Positions 31,501 to 38,340 of a stretch of DNA of 64,000 nt are shown here, piece by piece. The notes beneath the pieces were generated by a model. That model did not search any database, was not told where the DNA came from, and saw nothing but the letters and a program-made list of their open reading frames with translations. Positions within the stretch are counted from its first letter, which is position 1. Each line of letters starts with the position of its first letter. The stretch is taken from NCBI GenBank assembly GCA_965223545.1, contig OZ245006.1, positions 5,728,001 to 5,792,000 on the forward strand, in the 5' to 3' direction. Source of the DNA: Planctomycetota bacterium. GTDB taxonomy: Bacteria; Planctomycetota; UBA1135; UBA2386. Made by a program: the position numbers and the translations under genes.

Positions 31501-31938
31501 CAGACCTTCGCGCCGCTCGACGGCGGCCCGGCGCCCTTCGTGCGCTTTCTCGATGTGCCCTCCATCGTCGCGCCAGCGCCGGGGGCGGTGGTGTCGGCCG
31601 ACGGGTTCACGGTGCAGTGGACGGTGCCGGTGTCGACCCTCTACGTCGTGGTCAACCTGCGCGCCGAGAACGGCGCGGTCGTGCGCGATTGGACCGCGGT
31701 GCTGCCAGCGAGCTTCGATCGCTTCTCGTTCCGCCGGCTGCCGGTCGAGTCGCCGCAGCCGCTGATCGCTGGCACGACTTGGCGGCTGTCGGTGACGGCG
31801 GCGCGGATCGAGACCGGAGTGCTGTCGCGGGTGCGAGATCCCTACCGCCGCATTCTGCAGAACTGGGTCGGCATCACCGCCGCCGAGCGTGAGGTCAACG
31901 CGTTCTCGACCACGGCGATCACCGTGACGACCAATTGA
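28570..31938 (+). CDS. nth: Endonuclease III (N-terminal ~215 aa) fused in frame to a large beta-rich lipoprotein-like protein
   Basis: LLVATILSAQNTD, LPGVGRKTAN (HhH), IDTH, C-x6-C-x2-C-x5-C Fe-S motif; no stop; then LWLLLGAVAFAAAC (Cys 29293) and ~880 aa of beta-rich sequence. Confidence 0.85.
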   Translation: MVRETDKARRARARRLVAGVLAAQPDARCALDFETPFQLLVATILSAQNTDENVNRVTPRLFSRFPDPQAMATADPDQLQELIHSTGFFRQKTKSLLRVSQALVDEHGGEVPDTLDELVRLPGVGRKTANLVLGVCFGVPGLVIDTHAGRLARRWGLTEHKDAGKIERDLMPLVPAEQWTAFSHATIFHGRRVCHARKPSCGECGLRVDCPSADVGGVERGGRVRGAGLWLLLGAVAFAAACSGEGSDIGPRIVPVSEADYRVIVVDDSYRRAVNARVTIDGASVAGAVGRNGRAVVPALGVGRGRVTVDGAAASATASSELGRLVVDADLSDGGELPYVVFLPDVAGSAGLVLPAGPLGGGAQLDDSASSGGIVTIAAGTAVAAGSSSTITLRTGMVSAHHLPGELPAAASGVRVWSRGVYLHPPDLTLAPSAGLAVVNDQGFAAGAAADLYWLEPATGRWQRVAGGSVDGSGALVQAGAGVAAAGLYAFAVDAVAPTTQLIGRLLDLQDRGVPDGLVRAGAGRVRSRGDGRFTLPPIAAVDGSGAARTVTLDAFGGRDWLPVRAASTVTLTPGVQDLGDLRIETATATQVRLQLINRGRIDPWRRLRVSSGDDPTFGIGVGDANGERTFHDQAGEQFVGVLTTRIQDDFDVLVAQAFRFLKAGEHHADLQVFGNKQPWWIGRGRGGATATYVVDALGTGPIRFAAVTRDAEPERGFLGYTRETGVVNGAYGDGGQATAAIATGATGSTVVSAFTMVDVDSARIEVPLQRARQFTGAFDAHGVVRGAVTLGAASGVERRVSATRTLTREDWYEAVFFDREIGGDVPRREDPALTGGRDFVLGVPLPAGNLAAVEVASSPTGSKLQRLGFVGDLMPDPGGAVTRDVPLTYAADTAFTVADALTNLHGSLSFADVTYDLGIEFADGRVLDAGRDLGGLRVAGTSLVADLPALVGGLQGARYLVAFDARSTGGGVEVRQQTFAPLDGGPAPFVRFLDVPSIVAPAPGAVVSADGFTVQWTVPVSTLYVVVNLRAENGAVVRDWTAVLPASFDRFSFRRLPVESPQPLIAGTTWRLSVTAARIETGVLSRVRDPYRRILQNWVGITAAEREVNAFSTTAITVTTN

Positions 31939-33266
31939 GCACCGTGCCGCGTACCGCAGCCGCAGCAATGACGTCGACGGCGGGCGCCGGCCGCCGGCGC
32001 GTTGCCGCCGGGTCATTGGCGCTGCTGGCGGTGGTCCACGGAGCTTGCGTCGGTGGCGTGCGCCGGTCGTTCGATCCGGGGCCCTTTGCCCTGGCCGCCC
32101 AAGCGGCGTTGGCGGCGGGTGACCTGCGCCGCGCCGAGAGCTTGCTGCACGAGGCGCGGCGGCGCACGCGGGGCACCGACGCGGCGGTCCACCTCTGGCT
32201 GGCCACGGTCGCGGCGATGCAGTGGCAGTCCGACGTCGCTCTGCGCCATCTCCGCGTCGTGCTCGACCTGCCCGATCGCGCCGGCTGGACCGAGGCCGAA
32301 GTCCGCGGCGAGATGGGTGACCTGCTGTTCCGCGTCGGCCGTTACGGCGACAGCGCGGCCCATCTGCTGGCCGGCTCCGAGGGGCGTGCCGGCGATTCGC
32401 GCCGTGCGCGGGGCGAGCTGGCTCGACTGCTGCCGTCGCTGCGCAAGACCCCCGCCGTGGAGTTCGCCGAGCTGCCGCTGCTGCAGGGCTCCCTGCCGAG
32501 GTTGTTGTGCGCCGTCGGTCCGCTCGAGCGCGTGTTCGTGCTCGATACCGGCGCCAGCTTCTCGACTCTGTCGCGCAGCATGGCGGGCGAGCTCGGGGTC
32601 GATCCGATCCTGTCCGCTGGGGTCGGCACCGACGGCCAGGGGCAGCGGTTTCCCACCGCCGTTGGCCGGCTGCCGACGTTTGCCCTCGGTGACGTGGATG
32701 TGGGACCACAGCCGGTGCTGGTGGTCGACGACGATCGGCTGGCGGTGCGCGACGTCGCCGATGGGTTCGCCCGTGCGACCGGTGCGCTGGTCGGCCTCGA
32801 CGTGATCACGCGGTTCTCCGCGACGCTCGATCCCGGCCGCGGCAGCCTCGTGCTGCGGCCGCCCGGGCGCCTCGCCGAAGTCGACTCGCAGCCGTGTCTG
32901 TGGGTGCGCAACCGGCTGCTGGTGCCGGTCGAGATCGAGGAGCAGCGGCTGTGGTTCGCGTTGGACACCGGGGCCAGCGCGTCGAGCCTGACCGAGCAGG
33001 GCCTGGGGCTGTTGGTCGGCGGCCACGAACGCGCCCAAGAGGGCTTCCACGAAGTGCTGAGCCCCGGCGGCAGCCGCGTGTCGGTGCGCGTCGTGCGCGG
33101 CCTCGTGCTGCGGGTGAGCGATGTGCGCTTTCGCGGCGTCGACCTACCCGTCCTCGAGCGCGAGGCCCAGGACCTGTTCCCGCTGCACGGCGTTCTCGGC
33201 GCGGACCTGTTGCTGCGTTGTCGGACCACGTTGGATTCGGGGCGCGTGCGGATGGAGGCGTTCTGA
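31935..33266 (+). CDS. TPR plus double retropepsin-like aspartyl protease
   Basis: FVLDTGAS..LVGLD and FALDTGAS..GVLGAD; N-terminal signal and TPR; overlaps the upstream stop. Confidence 0.85.
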   Translation: MSTVPRTAAAAMTSTAGAGRRRVAAGSLALLAVVHGACVGGVRRSFDPGPFALAAQAALAAGDLRRAESLLHEARRRTRGTDAAVHLWLATVAAMQWQSDVALRHLRVVLDLPDRAGWTEAEVRGEMGDLLFRVGRYGDSAAHLLAGSEGRAGDSRRARGELARLLPSLRKTPAVEFAELPLLQGSLPRLLCAVGPLERVFVLDTGASFSTLSRSMAGELGVDPILSAGVGTDGQGQRFPTAVGRLPTFALGDVDVGPQPVLVVDDDRLAVRDVADGFARATGALVGLDVITRFSATLDPGRGSLVLRPPGRLAEVDSQPCLWVRNRLLVPVEIEEQRLWFALDTGASASSLTEQGLGLLVGGHERAQEGFHEVLSPGGSRVSVRVVRGLVLRVSDVRFRGVDLPVLEREAQDLFPLHGVLGADLLLRCRTTLDSGRVRMEAF

Positions 33267-33602
33267 GCGTCAGGGTCCGCAAATCTTCGCGCGGCGACAA
33301 CCTTTCGGAAGGCTCGATTCCGCTAGAACTTCGACAACGCAGCTCCCTGAGGCTCGAAGATAACACTGGCCTCTGGGCTCAGCGCGGCCGCCCGCGACCG
33401 CGGGACCCGCGACCGACGCTCGGGTCGCGGAATGCTCCGTGTTTGGTTGCGGCCCCGGCCGCGCTGAGCCTCGGGGTCCGAGAATGTTCGAGCGGCAACA
33501 ACCTTTCGGAAGGCCCGTCGTCGCCGGGACTTCGATACCGCAACTCCCGGAGGCTCGAAGACAACACGGGCGTCTGCGCTCAGCGTGGCCGCCCGGCACC
33601 GC
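33264..33602. repeat. Composite repeat array A-B-A (A 33264-33381, B 33382-33464, A 33465-33582, partial B)
   Basis: A = 118 bp TGAGC...GCTCA; B = 83 bp GCGCGGCCG...CGGCCGCGC; homologous copies at 34051 and 55086. Confidence 0.9.
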
Positions 33603-33604
33603 TG

Positions 33605-33673
33605 GACGATCAGGAAGCGGACGTCAGCGGCGCACGAGGCGGCCGACAGACCTCTGAAGCCGGGGTTCGTCAC
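33605..33673 (-). pseudogene. N-terminal remnant of a nucleotidyltransferase-family gene truncated at the repeat array
   Basis: MTNPGFRGLSAASCAADVRFLIV resembles the MNxDFxxLLxxxxxxxVRFLIVGG start of such proteins; similarity stops at the repeat. Confidence 0.45.
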
Positions 33674-33959: not shown

Positions 33960-34050
33960 CGTAGACCAGCGGCCAGCTTTGCGAGCCGGCTCAGCGCCTC
34001 GCCGACGATTTCGAACTGCCGTTCGACCGCGGCCTCGAGCAAACGGGTTC
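33960..34050 (-). pseudogene. HEPN/DUF86 (HepT-like) toxin fragment
   Basis: LLEAAVERQFEIVGEALSRL; lacks the N-terminus (cut by repeat A at 34051) and the RxxxxH motif. Confidence 0.6.
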
Positions 34051-34187
34051 TGAGCGCCCGGGGCCGAGAATCTTCGCGCGGCGAAAACACTTGCGAAGGC
34101 CGGTTGTCGTCAGGACTTCCATACCACAACTCCCGGACGCTGGAAATCAACACGGGCGTCTGCGTTCAGCGCGGCCGGGGCCGCAAC
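34051..34187. repeat. Repeat A copy 3 (34051-34168) plus the left part of an inverted repeat B interrupted by IS110
   Basis: 118-bp A homolog; 34169-34187 GCGCGGCCGGGGCCGCAAC is the reverse complement of 33446-33464. Confidence 0.9.
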
Positions 34188-34199
34188 GGTATGTGTGGT

Positions 34200-34545
34200 T
34201 CCATGATCTGCGAAGCTAGAGTTCTCCACACCCGTCGCGCCGTAGCGGTGTGGAAGACTCGCGCGATGGTGCAGCCGCAGGAGTCGTGTCGGGAGTCTGG
34301 TCATCGGCCGCAAGAGAGCTTAGGGTCCCCCGGCGTGCGACGGAGAGGTTTCGCGATCTGCCGCAATGGTGGCGCTTCGAGCGGCCCCTCATTTGGTTCT
34401 GCGACTCTCCTCCCGCGTGGGGGACCCGATTTAGGAGATTGGCGGCGTGAGAAATCACGGCCCCGAAACACGAACCGTTTTGGCGACTCGCCTCCTCAGG
34501 CGGACTGCGCGGGTAGGGAGAGTCCTCTCGTCGACACTCACTCGT
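34200..34545 (+). ncRNA. Putative bridge RNA in the IS110 left non-coding end (ends approximate)
   Basis: Stems 34219-34260, GGGTCCCCC/GGGGGACCC (34323/34427), GGAGAG/CTCTCC; loop segments match target (34360-34366, 34392-34398) and donor (34431-34439, 34474-34478). Confidence 0.75.
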
Positions 34546-34561
34546 TGAACATGGAGGGGAC

Positions 34562-36064
34562 ATGAATCGATTCGTTGGATTGGATCTCGGCTTGAGGAGC
34601 AAGCACCGAGCCGTCGTTCTGGATGGTGCGAAGTCTCGGGGCAGACCGTTTTCAGTCGAGAACAGCCGTGAGGGTATTGACCTTCTGCTGCGCCGTGCAC
34701 AGGAAGGTGCCGAGGGTCCGGTGAGCTTCGTGATGGAACCAACGGGGTTGGCGTGGCTGCCCATCGCGGCGCACGTGAACGCCGCAGGGTTCCAGATCTA
34801 CGTGAGCAAACCACAGAAGCTGAGCGACCTGCGGAAGTTCTATAGCAAGCACACCAAAACCGACGTAGTAGACGCCGAGGCCGCTGCGCGTCTGCCGCAG
34901 ATGGATCCAAAGGGCGTCCACCAGCTGCGTGTTCCAACTGCCGACGAGACGACGATCCGTCGACTCGTGAAGCGGCGTGAGCGGTTGGCGCGCGAGCTCA
35001 GCGACCACAAGCGTCGTGTGCACGCGATACTGGTACTGGCGAATCCCAGCCTCATGAAGGCCTTGGGGGCAGAGAAGTTCAGTGCCGCTAAGATGGGGTT
35101 TCTGCGGCGCTACGTCGATCCGGTGAAAGCGGTCGGCCTTGGGAAGAGTCGCTTGGAGCGCTTCTTGACGAAGCGATCCAAGGGAACGCATGACCCGTGC
35201 TTGGTCGACCGCGTGCTCGAGTCCTGCCGACAGGCCGCCGAGTACTACGCTGAGCTGCGAGCTGCGGGGCAGATGCCGTTCGACTACGAGGCCATCCAAG
35301 AGGATGTGGTGTACGAGCTGGATGAGATCGAGCGCAAGAACACGGACGTTCGCAAGCTCGACGCAAAGATCAAGAAGCTCTACCTGGGCGTCGATCCTGA
35401 CCGAACACTCGAGCAACTGCGCGGCGTCGGTCCCACGATCGCTGCGGCCATCGAAGCCTTGGTAGGCGACATCGCGCGGTTCTCGAACGGCAAGAAGTTC
35501 GTGAGCTACTGCGGACTGTGTCCACGCCGGAAGCAGACGGGCATGAGCGACCCCTCGATGCCAATCACCAAAACCGGCCAACGAGTACTCAAGAAGTACC
35601 TCTACCTAGCAGCTGACGTCGCTCGCCAGTGGGATCCGGATTTCGCGGCGTACTACGCTCGCCGCTACGCCGCAGGTGATCACCACAACCTCATCCTCAT
35701 CGCATTGGCTGGCAAGATGGCGCGCCGCGTCTACGCCCTCCTGAAGCGTCGCGACAGCCAGCGCGCCGATGACAAGCCGGCGTCGACGCAAGTCCGCTAC
35801 GTCCTGCGAGACGCCGACGGCAACGAGCTCACGAAGGTTGCCGCGCGCGCGCTCATCGCAGCCAAGTTCACGCGCAGCATCGTCGCGCCACAGCGGCATG
35901 AGCGCGACCAACGGCGACAGGGACGAGTGGGGACTCCGACGACGAGGGACTTGAGTGGCCGCCCAATGGACGCCACAGGCCTGGCCGTGGAATCCCCACG
36001 TCAACCTCACCCGATCGGTGATCTCATGCAAGAACACTTCCCTGGTCTTGTGGAAGAGTCCTGA
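34562..36064 (+). CDS. IS110-family transposase / bridge recombinase (500 aa)
   Basis: VGLD(8), ME(59)PTG, KTD(101)VVD(104)A; LRGVGPTIAA..GDIARF..YCGLCP; RBS GGAGGGG. Confidence 0.96.
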   Translation: MNRFVGLDLGLRSKHRAVVLDGAKSRGRPFSVENSREGIDLLLRRAQEGAEGPVSFVMEPTGLAWLPIAAHVNAAGFQIYVSKPQKLSDLRKFYSKHTKTDVVDAEAAARLPQMDPKGVHQLRVPTADETTIRRLVKRRERLARELSDHKRRVHAILVLANPSLMKALGAEKFSAAKMGFLRRYVDPVKAVGLGKSRLERFLTKRSKGTHDPCLVDRVLESCRQAAEYYAELRAAGQMPFDYEAIQEDVVYELDEIERKNTDVRKLDAKIKKLYLGVDPDRTLEQLRGVGPTIAAAIEALVGDIARFSNGKKFVSYCGLCPRRKQTGMSDPSMPITKTGQRVLKKYLYLAADVARQWDPDFAAYYARRYAAGDHHNLILIALAGKMARRVYALLKRRDSQRADDKPASTQVRYVLRDADGNELTKVAARALIAAKFTRSIVAPQRHERDQRRQGRVGTPTTRDLSGRPMDATGLAVESPRQPHPIGDLMQEHFPGLVEES

Positions 36065-36106
36065 ACAAGCCGTGCACACGCGATGTCGAGCCCCAGCGAA
36101 AACCCC

Positions 36107-36112
36107 TTGACA
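36107..36112 (+). promoter_or_regulatory. -35 box TTGACA of the IS110 circle-junction promoter
   Basis: After end joining it lies 17 bp from TATGTG (34190-34195), with TG at the extended -10 position. Confidence 0.7.
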
Positions 36113-36127
36113 TGACTTAGGAGATAT

Positions 36128-36195
36128 CAAACACGGAGCATTCCGCGACCCGAGGTCGGTCGCGGGTCCCGCGGTCGCCGGCGGCCGCGCTGAGC
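36128..36195. repeat. Right part of the interrupted, inverted repeat B
   Basis: CAAACACGGAGCATTCCGCGACCCGAG...GCGGCCGCGCTGAGC is a near-identical reverse complement of 33377-33445. Confidence 0.9.
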
Positions 36196-36277
36196 GTAGT
36201 CCCCAAAGCTCTTACCCACCGTGGACTCGAAGTCAGCATCTCTACGACGAGCGAGCCGTGCGCGCTACTTTCGCGGT

Positions 36278-36472
36278 ATGGCGGACTGGACGTCGTTCTA
36301 CTACCAGCTGGCGGTCGGTGGATTGGTGTTTGCCGTCGGCATGTTCGTCGGTGTGCGCACCGGCCAGCTCGGCGGTAGTGGGCGTGGCCTGCGCCGCGCT
36401 GGCTGGCTGCTGGCGGGGTTGGTCTTCTTCGCGGCGCTGCAGGCGGCGCTGACCGCGTGGGGTGGGCCGTGA
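36278..36472 (+). CDS. Small two-TM membrane protein coupled to the symporter
   Basis: 64 aa, two hydrophobic helices, GTGA overlap with the next gene. Confidence 0.65.
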   Translation: MADWTSFYYQLAVGGLVFAVGMFVGVRTGQLGGSGRGLRRAGWLLAGLVFFAALQAALTAWGGP

Positions 36473-38340
36473 CGGCGCAGGTGGCGCTGCACGGCCTCGA
36501 TGTGGCCGTCGTGCTGGTCTACTTCGCCGGCATCACGGCGTTCGGCGCGTTCGTCGGCCGCTCGGTCGGCACGACGCGTGACTTCTTTCTCGCCGGGCAG
36601 CGGTTTCCGGCGTGGTTGGTGGCGTTCTCCTGCGTGGCGACGCTCGTTGGCTCCTACTCCTTCGTCAAGTACAGCTCGCGGGGCTTCGAGCACGGCCTGT
36701 CGTCGTCGCAGACCTACCTGAACGACTGGTACTGGATGCCGCTGTGGATGCTCGGCTGGTTGCCGATGATCTACTTCGGCGGCGTGCTGTCGGTGCCGGA
36801 GTACTTCGGTCGACGCTTCGATCGCCGGGCGCGGGCGGCGGCCACCGTGATGCTGCTGCTGTATCTGGTCGGCTACATCGGCATCAACCTGTACACCATC
36901 GGCGTCGCGCTCGAGACCCTGCTGCGCGGCTCACTCGGCCTCGACACCCTGACGCTGGCCGCGATCACAGCGGCGCTGTGCATGGCTTATGAGTTCACCG
37001 GTGGCCAGCTGTCGGTGATCTTCACCGATCTGGTTCAGGGTGTGCTGCTTCTCGTCGTCGGCCTCTTGCTGTTCGCCGTCGGCATCGCCCATCTCGGTGG
37101 GCTCGATCAGTTCTGGCAGCTGCTGCCCGCGGGCCACCGCCAACCCCTGCCGGCGTTCAACGACGACCCCGGCTGGAACTTCGTCGGCATCTTTTGCCAA
37201 GACGGCGTCGCCGGTGGGGTGGCGTTCTACTTCATGAGCCAGGCGATGCTGATGCGCTTCCTGTCGGCGCGCTCGGTCGGCACCGCGCGGCGCGCCGCGG
37301 CGCTGGTGGTGATCGTGCTGATGCCGCTGGCGGCGATCGCCGTGTCGGGAGCCGGCTGGCTCGGTGCCGCCATGGTCGGCAAGGGCACGCTGCCCGCCGA
37401 TACCGCGCCGAGCGACGTGTTCGTCGTGGTCGCGCACCTGCTTTGCGGTCCTGGGCTGTTCGGCCTGGTGGTGGCGGCCATGCTGGCGGCGCTGATGTCG
37501 ACGGCCGACACCCTGATCAACGCGTCGTCGGCCGTGCTGATCAACGACGTCTACCGGCCCATGCGCCCGGGCCGAGACGACCGGCACTACCTGCGGGCGG
37601 CGCGGTTGGCGTCGCTCTTGGTCGCCGCGATCGGCTTGGCACTGGTGCCCGTCTACCAGGGGTTCGCCTCGATCTACCAGGCGCACGGCGCCTTCACGGC
37701 GGCGATCACTCCGCCGCTCGTGGCGGCGATCCTGCTGGCGTGCACTTGGCCGCGGATGACGACTGCCGGAGCACTCGCCACCCTGATCGGTGGTGCGGCC
37801 GCGATGTTGGCGTCGATCCCGTGGCCCGGTCTGGTGGCGCCGTTTGCCCACGGCGTGCCGCCGGACGGTGGCTACACCTACGTGCGCGCCTGTTACGGTC
37901 TGGCAGCAGCGATGCTGCTGGGCATCGGCGTCAGCCTCTGCACGGCGCCCCGCCCGCGGGCCGAGATCGACGCGCTGACCGTGTGGGGTTGCCGCAAGCG
38001 CGCCTCGACCAGCGCGACGGCGGCCGGGCGCTCCCGCCGTTGGCGCGGACACGCCGCGGCCGCGCCGTTGGTAGCGGACGCGCGAACGCAGGTCGCGGCC
38101 GACGGTGCCCTGCCCGAAGTCGGGCTGTCGCGCGCGGCGCGCGCGCGCCTGGCGGTGGACACCGGCGACGTCGTGTTCATCGACGAGGCGCGGTGGTGGC
38201 GCGGTGGGTTGAGCTCGGTGCGGGCGCGGGTCGGCGCCGAGATCGTCGACGGCGACGGCACGCTCCGACTGGCGCCGGCGGCGATGCGCGCGGCCGGCTT
38301 CGCCGAGCGCGCGGCGGTCGTCGTCGAGCGCGTCGATTGA
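36469..38340 (+). CDS. Sodium:solute symporter (SSS family)
   Basis: DFFLAG, SVPEYFGRRF, FTGGQLSVIFTD, AAMLAALMSTADT..N; many TM helices. Confidence 0.93.
   Translation: MTAQVALHGLDVAVVLVYFAGITAFGAFVGRSVGTTRDFFLAGQRFPAWLVAFSCVATLVGSYSFVKYSSRGFEHGLSSSQTYLNDWYWMPLWMLGWLPMIYFGGVLSVPEYFGRRFDRRARAAATVMLLLYLVGYIGINLYTIGVALETLLRGSLGLDTLTLAAITAALCMAYEFTGGQLSVIFTDLVQGVLLLVVGLLLFAVGIAHLGGLDQFWQLLPAGHRQPLPAFNDDPGWNFVGIFCQDGVAGGVAFYFMSQAMLMRFLSARSVGTARRAAALVVIVLMPLAAIAVSGAGWLGAAMVGKGTLPADTAPSDVFVVVAHLLCGPGLFGLVVAAMLAALMSTADTLINASSAVLINDVYRPMRPGRDDRHYLRAARLASLLVAAIGLALVPVYQGFASIYQAHGAFTAAITPPLVAAILLACTWPRMTTAGALATLIGGAAAMLASIPWPGLVAPFAHGVPPDGGYTYVRACYGLAAAMLLGIGVSLCTAPRPRAEIDALTVWGCRKRASTSATAAGRSRRWRGHAAAAPLVADARTQVAADGALPEVGLSRAARARLAVDTGDVVFIDEARWWRGGLSSVRARVGAEIVDGDGTLRLAPAAMRAAGFAERAAVVVERVD

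Follow-up and report, generated by a model that had tools for sequence, protein, structure and literature searches.

A threonine at the expected catalytic serine position of an apparently active IS110-group bridge recombinase

The window analysed here, a 64,000-nucleotide stretch of a Planctomycetota genome, carries a recombinase gene (positions 34562..36064, + strand) whose 500-residue product was characterized by open reading frame call, Pfam, alignment and a structural model. The protein comprises a RuvC-like DEDD domain, a coiled coil with a long variable insert, a Tnp domain and a C-terminal extension, with PF01548 matching residues 5–162 and PF02371 matching residues 281–366. The DEDD tetrad can be read intact in the sequence, as the initial annotation had reported, with the codons for D8, E59, D101 and D104 at 34583, 34736, 34862 and 34871, respectively (34583..34873, +). 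A helical variable region of about 90 residues (residues ~161–250; 35042..35311, +), seen in the alignment and in the model, lacks a counterpart in the IS621 alignment, and 96% of its positions are present across a subfamily of similarly long proteins. Within the C-terminal extension (residues ~397–500; 35750–36064), a strand-helix unit at residues 410–440 is partly conserved and the tail is variable. The neighbouring genes at 31935–33266 and 36457–38340, which encode a TPR and double aspartyl-protease protein and a sodium:solute symporter, are unrelated to the insertion described below.

The gene resides in a complete IS110-group element of 1,940 bp (34188..36127, +) whose ends were fixed against an empty sibling repeat 700 bp upstream and against other copies, the evidence being empty repeat copies and 11 different flanks. 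Non-coding sequence occupies 374 nt upstream of the gene and 63 nt between the stop codon and the element end. Sequence comparison indicates that the element interrupts a REP-like repeat, of which the left arm (34166..34187, +) and right arm (36128..36195, +) survive on either side; the empty sibling copy at 33377..33467 (−) represents the uninterrupted target. The genome holds 11 copies of the element, identical over all 1,940 bp, at separate sites with largely unrelated distal flanks. All 11 lie in GCCGCAAC|CAAA in one orientation, and insertion is site- and orientation-specific. The junctions, AAC|GGT on the left and TAT|CAAA on the right, have no CT core and repeat no base; section 4 of PMC11187229, in its available text, describes duplication as not characteristic of these families. 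Empty 12-mer targets number 95 in the genome (0.8 expected from base composition), 93 of them in REP-like context. In sequencing run X3, a single contig covers the whole element with no mismatch, at a depth of 301, compared with roughly 30 for the flanks.

The REP-like left arm is present at 9 of the 11 copies. Two copies, at C1:7273463 and C1:5137697, deviate: in one, the right flank is repeat and the left flank is not, and the other sits in a bare 12-bp target outside the repeat. The REP-like palindromic repeats form an abundant family of about 100 or more genomic copies in several subtypes, many with small deletions at or near the insertion point. Within the window, sequence comparison places copies at 33263–33607, 34050–34193, 36128–36200 and 55275 (−). 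Between repeats, the segment 33624–34053 contains two short reading frames (70 and 61 residues, on opposite strands) with no Pfam match, which may be remnants.

The genome also encodes two Ser-bearing IS110 families of 23 and 4 copies, and its assembly contains no Ser version of the 1,940-bp element. The 23-copy family (for example at C1:1013681 and 2758210) is Ser-type, reads WLRLCP without the Gly that usually precedes LxP, and has several copies in close pairs. At C1:6847541–6850519, a copy of the element lies less than 1 kb from a copy of the 4-copy Ser-type IS110. Searches of 40 related genomes with this query did not find the element, and a profile search of 400 genomes of the phylum returned three others at E ≤ 1e-40, of which two overlap Ser loci and the third is G199. 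Among the relatives, a second Thr element occurs as identical copies at two different flanks (L063/L066).

In the recombinase, residue T326 (ACG, 35537..35539, +) occupies the position at which a catalytic Ser is expected, as first noticed in the initial annotation. A gap-free phmmer alignment against solved structures sets GLCPRRKQTG on GLTPRRYESG of IS621 and ISCro4, placing T326, with G327 adjoining it, in register with IS621 S241. The available text of PMC11208158 states that S241 forms a 5′-phosphoserine and that its mutation abolishes recombination, in agreement with the covalent role that had been ascribed to this Ser. A nearby Ser, S329 (AGC, 35546..35548, +), aligns with an unconserved position. 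Structure prediction, proposed as a further check, was informative in part. An AF2 model with a mean pLDDT of 87.5 returns IS621 and ISCro4 as the top matches in a fold search (TM 0.74–0.78, normalized by target length), in support of a common fold. The placement of T326 on S241 is not confirmed by the model; the register is taken from the sequence alignment because loop residues 325–336 have pLDDT values below 50.

T326 is real, reflecting neither a sequencing error nor chance. A sequencing error is ruled out by the 11 identical genomic copies and by agreement with read-derived contigs; three runs, each of a different study (X3, X5 and X7, of which X3 may be the source sample), have contigs that cover position 35537 and show no other letter, and a fourth run compared, X6, leaves it uncovered. 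Chance is rejected because the aligned column holds Ser or Thr in all 242 homologous proteins that have a residue there.

Four segments of the 374-nt left end, arranged in the order known from IS621, show sequence matches to the arms of the target and to the ends of the element. A bridge RNA with approximate limits 34322..34495 (+) is predicted from covariation and guide matches. By sequence match, its left target guide GCCGCAAT (34360..34367, +) would read the left arm of the target, and its right target guide TTTGGTT (34392..34398, +) is the complement of AAC|CAAA. The putative left donor guide TTAGGAGAT (34431..34439, +) matches the right end of the element, stopping 2 nt short, and the right donor guide and handshake ACCGTT (34474..34479, +) is the complement of the left junction AAC|GGT. 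The non-coding end thereby appears to encode loops for target and donor binding, with complementarity to the target and to the element ends.

Guide matches were scored across 22 loci, minus 4 without an anchor and 2 duplicates, leaving 16 (11 Thr, 3 Ser and 2 unknown). Left target guides score 90 against their own left flanks, versus 51.5 ± 4.6 for shuffled pairings (0 of 20,000 shuffles; 16 loci), and right target guides score 56 against right flanks, versus 29.4 ± 4.1 (0 of 20,000; 13 loci). The bases after the right donor guide score 33 against the last three target bases, versus 24.6 ± 2.0 (1 of 20,000). Anchors were picked by eye and one boundary was set by hand, and these shuffle counts overstate independence because the pairs and loci are related. 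An alignment of 13 RNA sequences reveals two stem-loop units, each with an internal loop, in which 14 of the 38 predicted pairs show two-sided change. RNA support comes from this covariation, as the single-sequence fold is not significant (z −1.46), and an Rfam search yielded one chance-level match and no bridge-RNA family. Ser and Thr loci have a common RNA scaffold and junction geometry.

Across subfamily loci (L002, L003, L011–L014, L018, L025, L028 and L031), the junction dinucleotides vary, with AC, GC, AT, GG and TG on the target side; some loci repeat two or three junction bases and others none, and guides include G-T wobbles. At L011 and L022, a second, unrelated Ser-type IS110 lies beside the subfamily member, and the guides at these loci read nearly the same target as the element in the window. 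Near the right end of the element, TTGACA (36107..36112, +) resembles a −35 half and would sit 17 nt upstream of a −10-like TATGTG (34190–34195) if the ends were joined in a circle, both being consensus matches only. Contigs of four runs contain no circle joint and are uninformative on the absence of circles.

These features, as read in sequence (domains, DEDD tetrad, T326 register, ends, 11 copies in one target and matching guides), point to an IS110-group bridge recombinase that is apparently active and has evidently kept spreading. Like IS621 and ISCro4 (PDB 8wt6-9 and 9t56), the protein combines RuvC DEDD, coiled-coil and Tnp domains, and like IS621 the element has an upstream, here predicted, bridge RNA with four guides in the same order and a REP-like target, the REP target of IS621 being taken from partial literature text. 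It differs from IS621 and ISCro4 in having Thr for Ser241, in sharing only about 20% identity, in its length (500 versus ~326 residues, with the ~90-residue insert and the C-terminal extension) and in lacking both a CT core and a repeated junction base. The IS621-like subgroup is characterized by a CT core at both junctions and by proteins of 315–330 residues, and this element, with no repeated base and 500 residues, lies outside it. IS1111 elements have sub-terminal inverted repeats of 11–13 bp and a long non-coding region downstream; here the 25 longest of 56 inverted pairs include no end-to-end pair, the ends as read are not complementary, and the longer non-coding region is upstream. A strict definition requiring Ser at position 241 (IS621-type) excludes T326, and its wording likewise excludes IS4321/IS5075. 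The motif G-x-x-P-x4-S(t)-G is present, Thr being allowed in the printed S(t)G. Under the S(t)G definition, the element thus belongs to the IS110 family, within the upstream-RNA group and outside both the IS621-like and the IS1111 subgroups.

The long IS110-proper subgroup (395–455 residues; PMC11187229 section 6) is similar in its upstream non-coding region, its absence of sub-terminal repeats and its long helical variable region, whereas the present proteins are longer still and one-third carry TG; this comparison is by description rather than by reference sequences. According to the available text, ISPa11 and ISPpu9 also insert in multiple copies at one position of a genomic REP-like repeat, with a different repeat and different guides.

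Relatives of the recombinase carry either Ser or Thr at the column of T326. The 107 proteins found in a word-indexed search have 62 Ser and 45 Thr, and a set of 252 distinct proteins, which adds the best 150 of a 50%-cluster search, has 159 Ser, 83 Thr, 10 gaps and no other residue. The homologs are therefore not uniformly Ser, the outcome that would have pointed to a private mutation. A FastTree phylogeny of the 211 sequences with a residue in the column and at least 80% cover (41 were dropped), built with the column left out, requires at least 27 changes at this position, compared with 60.8 ± 3.1 for shuffled labels. Thr forms blocks of 13 and 18 consecutive sequences among many gains and reversions, and the nearest relative of the query, P0002 (73% identical), has Ser. 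A single Thr clade is ruled out by these changes and by the Ser sister. Among 88 domain rows read for codons at loci L001–L089, 33 encode Thr (20 ACC, 9 ACA and 4 ACG), 54 encode Ser (27 TCN and 27 AGY) and one is a gap. Under a simple 2:1 transition model, about 11% of random single-base changes to the observed Ser codons would give Thr. Indeed, all 83 non-Ser residues are Thr, which argues for selection for the hydroxyl. Thr could also serve as a stepping stone between the TCN and AGY Ser codons.

For a background sample, 151 genomes from the phylum of the host were searched with PF02371, and the 30 loci returned were combined with 40 regions hand-picked from the matches listed. With the copy from this genome and two gapped rows excluded, 70 rows hold 67 Ser (some near-duplicates), 2 Thr (one doubtfully aligned) and 1 Arg, so Thr, at about one-third, is enriched in the long subfamily. 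Members on plasmids of cultured strains have Ser in all 7 examined of 25 matches. Ser is likewise found in five Nitriliruptoraceae loci and in the plasmid members examined from Rhodococcus and Dietzia, and QTG occurs in one Coriobacteriia MAG and one Bifidobacteriaceae-titled record. The suggestion in the initial annotation that some actinobacterial IS110s read ETG is borne out for the motif, which occurs among the homologs (for example P0198, P0211, P0219 and P0236); the actinobacterial members examined read Ser or QTG.

The residues of DEDD type are intact in 67 of 70 full Thr proteins and 134 of 137 full Ser proteins. Nine representatives (P0125, P0139, P0149, P0176, P0195, P0198, P0211, P0219 and P0236) have Asn for the third acidic residue, D101; eight of the nine carry Thr at the catalytic column, and several belong to one lineage. 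Ratios of dN/dS, obtained by simple counting from pairs that are not independent, are 0.11–0.16 for 7 Thr-Thr pairs at ≥84% identity and 0.07–0.21 for 21 Ser-Ser pairs at ≥79% identity; the higher values of 0.17–0.61 for 29 more distant Thr-Thr pairs count against the Thr-nucleophile reading given below.

The reading that best accounts for these data is that T326 very probably acts as the nucleophile and forms a 5′-phosphothreonine link. By analogy with IS621, the bridge RNA would pair with the REP-like target and with the element ends, and a RuvC domain and a Tnp loop from opposite dimers would build a Mg-dependent site. The Thr hydroxyl would then attack the top-strand phosphate at the junction to give a 5′-phosphothreonine link, which the partner 3′-OH would resolve. 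The suggestion of a Thr-nucleophile clade made at the outset is supported in its chemistry, given the Ser/Thr-only column and the 11 copies, and fails in its phylogeny, given the number of changes on the tree. Ser and Thr seem close to interchangeable in the long subfamily (mostly 440–560 residues), in which the hydroxyl alone appears to be required. A deep scan of IS622/ISCro4 counts against free interchange: the available text of 10.1101/2025.05.14.653916 describes substitutions at catalytic positions, 241 included, as ‘highly depleted’ as a group.

Thr might mark a tuned variant with a shifted route, for example slower cleavage or religation, more hydrolysis, or more single-strand copy-out or off-register excision. 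Such a variant, which is compatible with a Thr nucleophile rather than exclusive of it, strikes us as doubtful. Threonine, being a β-branched secondary alcohol, is the more hindered nucleophile. The enrichment of Thr in the subfamily over the background favours tuning, as does the stronger retention of G327 next to Thr (70 of 74) than next to Ser (105 of 137). So do two 5-bp remnants, known from the genome of the Thr element alone. At REP-like sites C1:611325 (+) and C1:537464 (−), which belong to different repeat subtypes, the first five bases of the element stand alone at the exact insertion point, and contigs of run X3 contain the remnant joint as well, at a depth of 31.9. The element starts with GGTAT and ends with GATAT, and each remnant can therefore be described as a deletion between the two TAT triplets; two like events at 3-bp homology suggest off-register excision by the recombinase. 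Against a shifted route, however, stand the RNA scaffold and junction geometry common to Ser and Thr loci. Furthermore, across 27 independent pairs and 771 tests no second-site residue tracks Thr beyond chance (best p = 0.008, uncorrected). Column 100 leaned to Ser beside Thr (8 versus 1, p = 0.04 among the 771 tests), a tendency absent from the plain table, and the query has T100.

That T326 is instead a dead or strongly weakened allele, with the 11 copies mobilized by a different IS110 recombinase acting in trans or by a Ser version that has disappeared, is very unlikely. Candidate helpers exist in the two Ser-bearing IS110 families of this genome, the nearest relative, P0002, has Ser, and the depletion at position 241 in ISCro4 noted above points the same way. 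The 23-copy family, however, shares just ~27% identity across the Tnp domain, and the assembly lacks a Ser version of the element. The Thr blocks of 13 to 18 consecutive sequences bear signs of purifying selection, and the other substitutions expected of dead alleles number 0 in 242 proteins. The inactivating TCG-to-ACG change initially considered is disfavoured by the 11 identical copies, by the Ser/Thr-only column and by the low dN/dS in close Thr-Thr pairs.

The remaining proposal, that T326 is structural and the nucleophile is a nearby Ser (S329 or S332), is hardly credible. In its favour, the loop is flexible in the model and 61 of the 107 closest proteins carry Ser at position 329. In the larger set, however, just 26 of the 83 Thr proteins and 47 of the 159 Ser proteins do so, and 30 of the Thr proteins lack any Ser between −4 and +5. 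Column 329 undergoes 74 changes on the tree, compared with 27 for column 326, and it is T326 that stands in gap-free register with S241.

Thr in the catalytic column of an active element has a partial precedent in the IS1111 group. Section 6 of PMC11187229 gives SG or TG, occasionally TA, in the GL-P----S(t)G motif of IS1111-group transposases, and names SG alone as the motif of the IS110 group. IS4321 and IS5075, of the IS1111 group, read Thr-Gly at the catalytic column, and BLASTP puts the IS4321 Thr on T326. Of the 15 members listed for their cluster, among them proteins named IS5075, 14 contain the motif, all with Thr, and the other is a fragment without it; 4 of 12 IS1111-like plasmid genes examined, of 60 matches listed, have Thr, one of them named IS4321. 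In the accessible portion of PMC5001619, IS4321 and IS5075 are the most rampantly circularizing insertion sequences of the experiments reported there, with 5,248 circle-junction reads for IS4321 in culture, so an active Thr variant has a precedent. This precedent is not airtight, given that a Ser directly precedes the Thr in IS4321 and that the copy in the strain of that study may differ.

With S(t)G in print for IS1111 and Thr in proteins named IS4321 or IS5075, the variant itself is already published and the novelty is limited. We did not find in print a Thr share of about one-third in a long IS110-group subfamily, or a direct test of Thr; the literature searched yielded no direct test or biochemistry of any Thr member. 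Searches for IS110 paired with phosphothreonine, covering few subscription papers, returned nothing, and those for Thr-nucleophile recombinases or for Ser-to-Thr changes in serine recombinases returned nothing relevant, although passing mentions may be missed. In the passages available from Durrant 2024, PMC13626964, the CazIS110 and half-match preprints, Vaysset, a 2026 review and the EDEN preprint, serine is named or nothing is, and the word ‘threonine’ does not occur in those searched for it.

In papers on bridge recombinases the catalytic serine is presented as conserved, and one design pipeline, according to the available text of 10.64898/2026.01.12.699009, discarded candidates lacking Ser at position 241. 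Such a filter would lose about one-third of the long subfamily together with IS4321-like elements. The element described here offers a clean test case, with no Ser preceding the Thr, 11 identical copies and all four guides identifiable, and its non-CT, unrepeated junction may serve tool builders. The finding refines a known system rather than defining a new kind of system. We consider it likely that there is a large, mostly metagenomic subfamily in which the catalytic loop takes Ser and Thr alike, with dozens of switches between them, and in which Thr members use a covalent 5′-phosphothreonine at non-CT, unrepeated junctions and leave occasional 5-bp remnants. To our knowledge, Ser and Tyr are the only established nucleophiles of covalent recombinases. 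If the present reading is true, demonstration of a phosphothreonine adduct would broaden the chemistry accepted for these enzymes, adding Thr to Ser and Tyr as a third side chain used in covalent strand transfer.
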